From Eledone cirrhosa (taxonomy: Eukaryota): 64,000 nucleotides of DNA. The stretch covers positions 317,812,001 through 317,876,000 of the forward strand of contig OZ024743.1 in the NCBI GenBank assembly GCA_964016885.1, read 5' to 3'. Positions within the stretch are counted from its first letter, which is position 1. Each line of letters begins with the position of its first letter. The position numbers and the translations under genes were made by a program. Positions 35,230 through 35,384 of this stretch are shown in pieces. Below the pieces are notes generated by a model. The model saw only the letters and a list, made by a program, of their open reading frames with translations, ran no database searches and was not told the origin of the DNA.

Positions 35230-35384
35230 TTCATTATTTCTGAAGACGGCGTATATATGTGTTTGGTATGTATATTTAATCTTGATAATTTGTATAATTT
35301 TGTATAATTTTGTACATAGATCTGTTGAATATGCATACCAATTCTAACACATATATATCCTAGAAACGATCGTTAAATAATGAA
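35230..35384 (+). ncRNA. Type I hammerhead ribozyme with ~116-nt stem II (inverted copy)
   Basis: TTCATTATTT-CTGAAGA-[116-nt hairpin]-GAAA-CGATCG-TT-AAATAATGAA; perfect 10-bp stem I. Confidence 0.8.

Follow-up and report, generated by a model that had tools for sequence, protein, structure and literature searches.

Why would a predicted self-cleaving ribozyme keep, between the two halves of its catalytic core, an arm of more than 100 nt? The question is raised by a 155-nt motif at positions 35230–35384 of a 64-kb stretch of contig OZ024743.1 from Eledone cirrhosa (64,000 nt, referred to here as the window), which resembles the hammerheads of Penelope-like elements (PLEs). The available text of the papers concerned (PMC8557442, PMC4209133, PMC2377424) leaves two questions open, namely the function of PLE hammerheads and the reason for which PLEs retain introns despite passing through an RNA intermediate. 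The two probably meet in this single motif, which belongs to a young family with thousands of near-identical copies.

Anatomy of the motif and its host element

The motif contains the hammerhead core consensus (CUGANGA, GAAA and an NUH triplet, with the C3-G8 pair), and three helices surround this core, with stem I open-ended (Table 1). The features named in the original prediction all agree with the sequence. Stem I is perfect (10/10 pairs), the CTGAAGA and GAAA cores and the GUU triplet lie where they were placed, with U35374 as the predicted cleavage nucleotide, and the giant stem II separates the cores by exactly 116 nt. These nucleotides form the proposed irregular hairpin through arms of 12 bp (35252–35263 with 35346–35357) and 13 bp (35264–35276 with 35328–35340, one G-U), capped by two copies and one partial unit of TTTGTATAA. 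The base of stem II is also as weak as claimed (C.A, G-U, G-C, C.C, G-U), and folding, one of the proposed checks, gave z = −7.0, with none of 200 shuffles equally stable. The two copies in the window are indeed identical, the second hammerhead lying on the minus strand inside a 701-nt inverted repeat of 100% identity. Stem III, absent from the original prediction, is an 8-nt palindrome that forms 2 bp only in the monomer. The closing pair G10.1-C11.1 is replaced by C.A in the window copy and by U-A in subfamily D, and no loop II–stem I tertiary contact of the kind typical of fast hammerheads is evident.

Table 1. Positions of the motif, its parts and the host element in the window (predicted roles are worded as such).
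Feature	Position	Strand	Remarks
Inverted, 5'-truncated pseudo-LTR copy carrying the motif	33861..35438	+	Ends at 35438 in (TA)n, putative first reverse-transcription start site
5'-truncated RT-GIY-YIG ORF, Hydra-clade	32223..33770	-	About the C-terminal 515 of 813 aa
3' untranslated region, ~4.4 kb	27762..32222	-	TA/TG microsatellite-rich; ends in 3' pseudo-LTR
Identical second hammerhead in 3' pseudo-LTR	27816..27970	-	Inverted-repeat match
Tail of ~136 nt ending in (TA)n	27626..27761	-	Putative second reverse-transcription start site
Stem I, 5' strand	35230..35239	+	Holds putative transcription start A35233, C/A step in TCATT
Catalytic core C3-A9	35240..35246	+	CUGAAGA; UUGAAAA in subfamily F
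Long stem II, 116 nt	35247..35362	+	Conserved base C.A / R-Y / G-C / C.C / pairs
Predicted 5' splice donor GTATGT (GTAAGT in F)	35266..35271	+	33 nt past the putative start
Apical module TGATA..TTTGTA..TACATAGATC	35283..35322	+	Conserved sequence and pairing; candidate protein-binding or promoter element
TAG that overlaps core G12, followed by the GAAA core	35361..35366	+	TAG is one candidate acceptor, 98-nt intron
Palindromic stem III ACGATCGT	35366..35373	+	Predicted pairing between two ribozyme copies
GUU triplet	35372..35374	+	Predicted cleavage 3' of U35374; GUA in other subfamilies
Stem I, 3' strand	35375..35384	+	Pairs with 35230..35239
Second TTCATTATTT, anti-stem	35415..35424	+	Predicted to displace stem I

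A descriptor scan of both strands of the window returned the long-arm pair and one short-arm pair (at 3166/2822), and nothing else; a CTGAAGACGG at 14788 on the minus strand has no partner core in the window. The Rfam hammerhead model did not match the long-arm motif. It missed the short-arm hammerhead in the same window too, so the Rfam miss is not caused by arm length. The expectation that standard descriptors would miss the motif fits the spacers of Craig et al. (7–17 nt; half-cores 35–50 nt) but does not account for the Rfam result. Entire families of high copy number can escape hammerhead searches that allow only a short stem II.

The host element is a Hydra-clade PLE, abundant and recently amplified, as judged from its sequence. 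Full-length copies elsewhere in the genome have an 830-codon frame (Met at 18), a single ORF in which the reverse transcriptase (RT; YRDD at 363) is followed by a C-terminal GIY-YIG endonuclease (Y711..YIG726). The RWK and DKT motifs appear as RWR54 and DKT132, RWR being found in many homologues as well; the CxCX5C linker is at C690–C698, and C788xxC791, E794, N807 and C816xH818 are present, with no CCHH. Pfam and solved-structure searches gave weak matches only, and the Pfam GIY-YIG family was matched weakly by 5 of 35 homologues and not by the protein of the window element. Insertions lie in (TA)n, with tandem or inverted pseudo-LTRs. RWK/R, DKT, CxCX5C and a C-terminal endonuclease that contains CxxC and CxH are likewise features of Hydra-clade PLEs (Craig et al. 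2021, PMC8557442). These are generally shorter than ~3 kb (PMC8557442), a typical trait and not a defining one, whereas tandem spacing here is 7.17–7.20 kb; the unit reaches ~7.2 kb because its 3' untranslated region (UTR) is 4.4 kb long.

The name Naiad, given to the element in the original prediction, is wrong. Naiad PLEs do share (TA)n targets and tandem or inverted insertions, and some of their half-cores lie 35–50 nt apart, but their endonuclease is N-terminal and they lack a canonical hammerhead (Craig et al. 2021, PMC8557442). Here the endonuclease is C-terminal, the motif is DKT rather than DKA and a canonical hammerhead is present, and domain order and motifs rule the Naiad assignment out.

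Neither hammerhead copy in the window has a downstream ORF. The tail (also at L032:272–408) is ~136 nt long, as against the 30–40 bp reported for PLEs. Subfamily E (L232) has only ~0.5 kb from ORF end to ribozyme, compared with the microsatellite-filled 3' UTR here, so the lineage of the window element has expanded its 3' UTR. Similar flanks of ~60 nt, inverted, lie around the insertion at 27541–27600 and 35706–35765, which suggests an insertion into the middle of an inverted element that was already there.

Copy number, subfamilies and selection on the fold

Exact patterns for the ribozyme 3' half found 6,881 GUU-type and 6,824 other-type instances genome-wide (controls 0), counts that include both arms of inverted pairs. 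Among the matches listed, all 86 to the ORF were 99–100% identical and all 41 to the DNA were identical over 299 nt; with copies this alike, the family is young. Six subfamilies, A–F, can be told apart, with arms that are 58–88% identical. Across 177 distinct complete copies (those of E and F chosen by similarity) the arm measures 89–126 nt, and the endonucleases linked to B, D and E are ~62–78% identical to that of the window element.

Covariation and core conservation in homologous copies had been proposed as a further check. In 33 chosen copies, 95.9% of the aligned cells were paired and 11 of 34 pairs had changed on both sides, against 25–50% paired in slid-partner controls and a both-side level reached in 2 of 500 shuffles; these counts are inflated by relatedness, and the copies of E and F were picked by similarity. 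The double changes include three inside stem I and five in the base of stem II. The tertiary pair C3-G8 was kept in all 33 aligned copies, as C-G in 30 and as U-A in three (U3-A8, subfamily F), a swap also reported in Schistosoma PLE ribozymes (PMC4209133), and among amplified forms the triplet is GUU or GUA only. In helices 5 and 6 of the apical module, four of the eight pairs are invariant and 98% of cells are paired. With the cores kept and compensatory changes present, covariation over six subfamilies and the U3-A8 core swap uphold the hammerhead reading, and the comparison makes it very probable that the ribozyme fold is under selection. Since compensatory changes fall within it, the weak base of stem II is a conserved form; its dismissal as the decay of a single copy was rejected, the weak base being common to at least 41 identical copies and covarying.

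A natural hammerhead interrupted by a long insertion is known in mammals, the discontinuous Clec2 hammerhead, which is of type III, lies in a host 3' UTR, has its insertion in stem I and has no connection with a retroelement leader. Searches of the open-access literature listed no PLE hammerhead whose stem II is ~100 nt long. The hammerheads of Hydra-clade PLEs are otherwise alike, being of type I, near the 3' end, often mismatched at 10.1-11.1, with a short near-palindromic stem III and (TA)n targets (Craig et al. 2021, PMC8557442). Their cores are at most ~26 nt apart in the 26 Hydra rows of File S2 (~54 nt in the longest table row), however, as against 89–126 nt here, an arm about four times longer than in the described relatives. 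Position 11.1 is U or C in 26/26 Hydra rows and A here; mismatches are common in those rows and C.A at 10.1-11.1 occurs in PLE-X1_cBra (PMC8557442), and U.U at the closing position is reported to be tolerated (PMC3088659). Minimal PLE hammerheads share the U3-A8 variant and a palindromic stem III for which dimeric action is proposed, show an ill-defined loop 1, and form a helix II of 6–8 bp, in contrast to 116 nt (Cervera and De la Pena 2014, PMC4209133). Other PLE families in the Eledone genome have 20–36 nt between the cores, several with the same C.C mismatch. Three more distant long-arm relatives (L324, L325 and L329) have the same stem III palindrome; L324 has ~90 nt between the cores and a T before G12.

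A predicted transcription start and splice donor within the hammerhead

Many copies begin abruptly at ATTATTT, and 2,798 copies genome-wide start in 35233–35240. The exact start is A35233 in 56 of 100 matches listed (a hand tally; two with one mismatch), and 38 of 88 distinct copies in the positional samples, in which palindromic insertions are counted twice, start within −3 to +7 (8 duplicate rows dropped). The same 5'-end hotspot appears in subfamilies E and F. Had the enzyme stalled at structure, the ends should fall on the 3' side of a helix, and the hotspot is therefore most simply read as the point where reverse transcriptase reached the RNA 5' end. Transcription is thus likely to start at A35233, with endonuclease cutting at ATT as an alternative source of the hotspot. 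An extra G stands before 14 of 39 independent-looking junctions (one duplicated, several templated), which is no more than suggestive of a cap.

Several other arrangements occur at the same site. Palindromic insertions of ~0.4–0.6 kb centred on it, that is, fold-backs of short cDNA, are frequent (L061–L100, L198–L227), and some carry short tandem repeats of the first 13–20 nt that resemble a strong-stop intermediate. At L111, L119, L120, L121, L123, L132 and L237, what we take to be a SINE-like 3' end is joined at one fixed point to ATTATTT; the junction is found as well in 11 of 100 matches listed for the start-site hotspot, and may represent either a chimeric family or repeated microhomology joining. 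About 20 subfamily F copies (L259–L287) have a common foreign upstream segment fused at the start site and likely constitute an amplified chimeric unit, perhaps non-autonomous, with the U3-A8 core and no predicted anti-stem.

A donor-like hexamer, GTATGT in A–E and GTAAGT in F, lies 31–33 nt past the 5'-end hotspot in 168 of 177 copies, and the three bases before it vary freely (TTG, TAG, AAG, GAC, CAT). We regard it as probably functional as a splice donor, with the caveat that GTATGT is common in TA/TG-rich sequence and is paired within the hairpin. A second Hydra family in the genome (31-nt arm; 8,264 pattern copies) has a 5'-end cluster of its own at TTTCA, present in 7 of the 11 loci whose ends fall within the 90 nt compared, and G/GTATGT follows 41–44 nt past that cluster, upstream of the ribozyme.

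Only four YAGs lie between the donor and the ATG, giving introns of 54, 98, 297 or 427 nt, and none of them makes a convincing acceptor. An acceptor at 35319 was set aside, its introns of 42–54 nt being probably too short. The 98-nt option uses core G12 (YAG, acceptor at 35363) and is present in 174 of 177 copies; a non-A precedes G12 in 147 copies genome-wide, no branch point or pyrimidine tract is conserved before 35363, and the distant copy L324 has T for A there. The 427-nt option would remove eight of the nine upstream ATGs of the 495-nt unspliced leader together with both reverse-transcription start sites; Chlamys-3 has a similar intron, of 398 bp (Craig et al. 2021, PMC8557442). An acceptor past the reverse-transcription start sites would explain an intron kept through retrotransposition. 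No spliced genomic copies were found among 7 pattern matches (subfamilies A–C, 35363 acceptor only), but the copies of PLEs reportedly keep their introns (Schostak et al. 2008, PMC2377424), so this lack is uninformative. Contig sets X1–X6 showed no joints; X4 had a DNA-like depth profile and microsatellite junctions, and three A>G differences found almost only in that set were left out of the analysis. A rule by which the last G of exon 1 rebuilds G12, leaving a short canonical ribozyme after splicing, holds for A–D only; exon 1 ends in C or T in E and F, and the rule was therefore dropped as general.

We propose, with a probability of about 0.55, a combined mechanism in which the start, exon 1 and donor lie inside the hammerhead and splicing removes the predicted ribozyme. 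Transcription from A35233 would give a leader RNA with 7 bp of stem I only. Splicing from 35266 would then take out stem II on its 3' side, and with it either core G12 or the whole 3' half, according to whether the acceptor is 35363 or lies closer to the ATG, the product being a translatable, cleavage-proof mRNA. The unspliced RNA would keep the ribozyme and both reverse-transcription start sites, and would be the template for transposition. A likely reason for the length of stem II is that the motif has to accommodate the transcription start, the first exon and the intron donor; with the donor inside the long arm, only unspliced RNA would keep the ribozyme. We are more tentative, at a little under even odds, about the general statement that this is a natural ribozyme interrupted by a spliceosomal intron, with splicing sorting the transcript into a ribozyme-free mRNA or a self-cleavable template.

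Cleavage of the unspliced RNA after U35374 would be slow and gated, probably needing either two copies paired through the stem III palindrome or the element's protein. In the minimum-energy fold, stem I and the long arm (pair probability 0.92–1.0) are preserved but the core is mispaired, the active fold lying 4–9 kcal/mol higher, and the self-duplex of the stem III palindrome is predicted at −10.0 kcal/mol. Such a palindrome is a signature linked to dimeric hammerheads (PMC4209133), and there are reports of other PLE hammerheads being helped by dimer formation or by a protein (PMC4209133, PMC11167929). Once the RNA extends 65 nt past the site, the 3' strand of stem I is predicted to pair with the anti-stem instead in A–E, with a probability of 0.75–1.0, and the 7-bp stem I of start-site transcripts has a predicted probability below 0.1 in A–E, figures that are AU-rich predictions with small margins. 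No anti-stem is predicted in subfamily F, and one is predicted weakly in the second Hydra family. On this modelling, the downstream anti-stem would hold the ribozyme off once transcribed. The 5' ends of genomic copies give no clean sign of in vivo cleavage; A-type copies starting in 35374–35385 number 204 only, many of them explained by fold-back or indels.

Parts of this arrangement have precedents. In D. virilis Penelope, a 75-bp intron lies 46 bp past the start and both spliced and unspliced RNAs are found (Schostak et al. 2008, PMC2377424). As predicted here, the intron is in the 5' leader, soon after the start, and overlaps the ribozyme (PMC4209133; PMC2377424), but it extends only as far as the 5' end of helix I, upstream of the core, whereas here the putative start is in helix I and the predicted donor inside helix II. 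Poseidon_Ac of Anolis, too, has a pair of internal reverse-transcription start sites, putative in the element here, which lie downstream of the ribozyme and delimit its tail, and its ribozyme is inactive without help, which we count as a likeness (Frangieh et al. 2024, PMC11167929). Its ORF starts in stem II and its tail is short, however, whereas here the ATG is ~350 nt past the predicted cleavage site and the tail is ~136 nt. An overlap of start site and donor with the ribozyme is not described for Hydra-clade PLEs in the available text of Craig et al. (PMC8557442). The natural variants (GUU/GUA, C3-G8/U3-A8, GTATGT/GTAAGT) mean that one RT-PCR and one cleavage assay can test both open questions.

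Other possible roles for the long arm, and neighbouring elements

The original prediction saw the arm as a possible platform for protein binding or A-to-I editing that gates cleavage. Binding fares better: the arm might bind the RT-endonuclease of the element or a host protein, or act as a DNA-level internal promoter, with no intron and with folding gated by binding. We hold this unlikely, though it deserves weight, as the apical module is nearly invariant even though subfamily arms are 58–66% identical, and the C.C mismatch of stem II is conserved, in short-arm families too. The Anolis PLE hammerhead cleaves only with its protein, but the RNA that the element requires lies downstream of the pseudo-LTR (PMC11167929). 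Binding leaves unexplained the switch from GTATGT to GTAAGT and the fixed donor-to-hotspot distance, repeated in the second Hydra family. It is compatible with the intron model, and the near-invariance of the apical module in sequence and structure would allow a protein or promoter role beside it.

The intron model also has to be weighed against neutral growth, in which microsatellite-like slippage has lengthened loop II and the resulting arm is tolerated, having only to fold clear of the core and serving no function itself. Short-arm families with arms of 20–31 nt have the same stem II base, 10-nt repeat units are gained and lost among copies, and a single copy, L319, has a much shorter arm. 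We nevertheless find this improbable, since arm length is held within its narrow range despite the divergence of the endonucleases, the donor hexamer and apical module are conserved in sequence, and no shortened form was amplified among the loci compared. Still less probable is that the motif has decayed into a relic without catalytic activity, retained solely as a structure for promoter function or protein binding. The active fold is not the minimum-energy fold, stem III is minimal in the monomer, and in Anolis cleavage was dispensable in vitro and no RNA ends were seen at the site (PMC11167929). Against a relic, the C3-G8 pair is kept throughout the alignment, as U-A in subfamily F, and the triplet is restricted among amplified forms.

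The least probable proposal is that ADAR editing gates cleavage, for instance by converting the A35362.C35247 mismatch into an I-C pair and thereby closing stem II: the arm forms a stable duplex, long though imperfect, and A35362 sits in UAG opposite C, but rare A>G changes were not significantly enriched in the hairpin (17 A>G and 12 T>C inside, 11 and 18 outside; p = 0.19), and there was no G excess at 35362, where G made up 30 of 100 non-A variants listed (hand tally; 147 non-A copies in all). UAG opposite C is a context preferred by ADAR, and coleoid cephalopods show high RNA editing. A-to-I gating has left no footprint in the genomic copies, and DNA copies would miss editing of RNAs that were never reverse-transcribed.

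Other elements lie nearby. The short-arm pair in the window (2715–2871 and 3117–3273) consists of inverted type I hammerheads with 31-nt arms, akin to the pseudo-LTR of the second Hydra family, with GG/GTATGT upstream of the core; like the long-arm motif, it was missed by Rfam. A GIY-YIG ORF fragment (1712–2569) adjoins it and may be a separate insertion. The second Hydra family itself (L138–L167) is young, with frames of 738–750 aa, a 4.0-kb tandem unit and a stem III of ATATATAT. Another remnant of an RT and GIY-YIG PLE occupies 43554–45781. A 566-nt inverted repeat of 99% identity (60180–60745 and 63301–63866) flanks a frameshifted RT element (61121–63100) with a C-terminal cysteine motif, presumably R4/NeSL-like, and a 285-codon frame at 55605–56462 contains a TLC domain.
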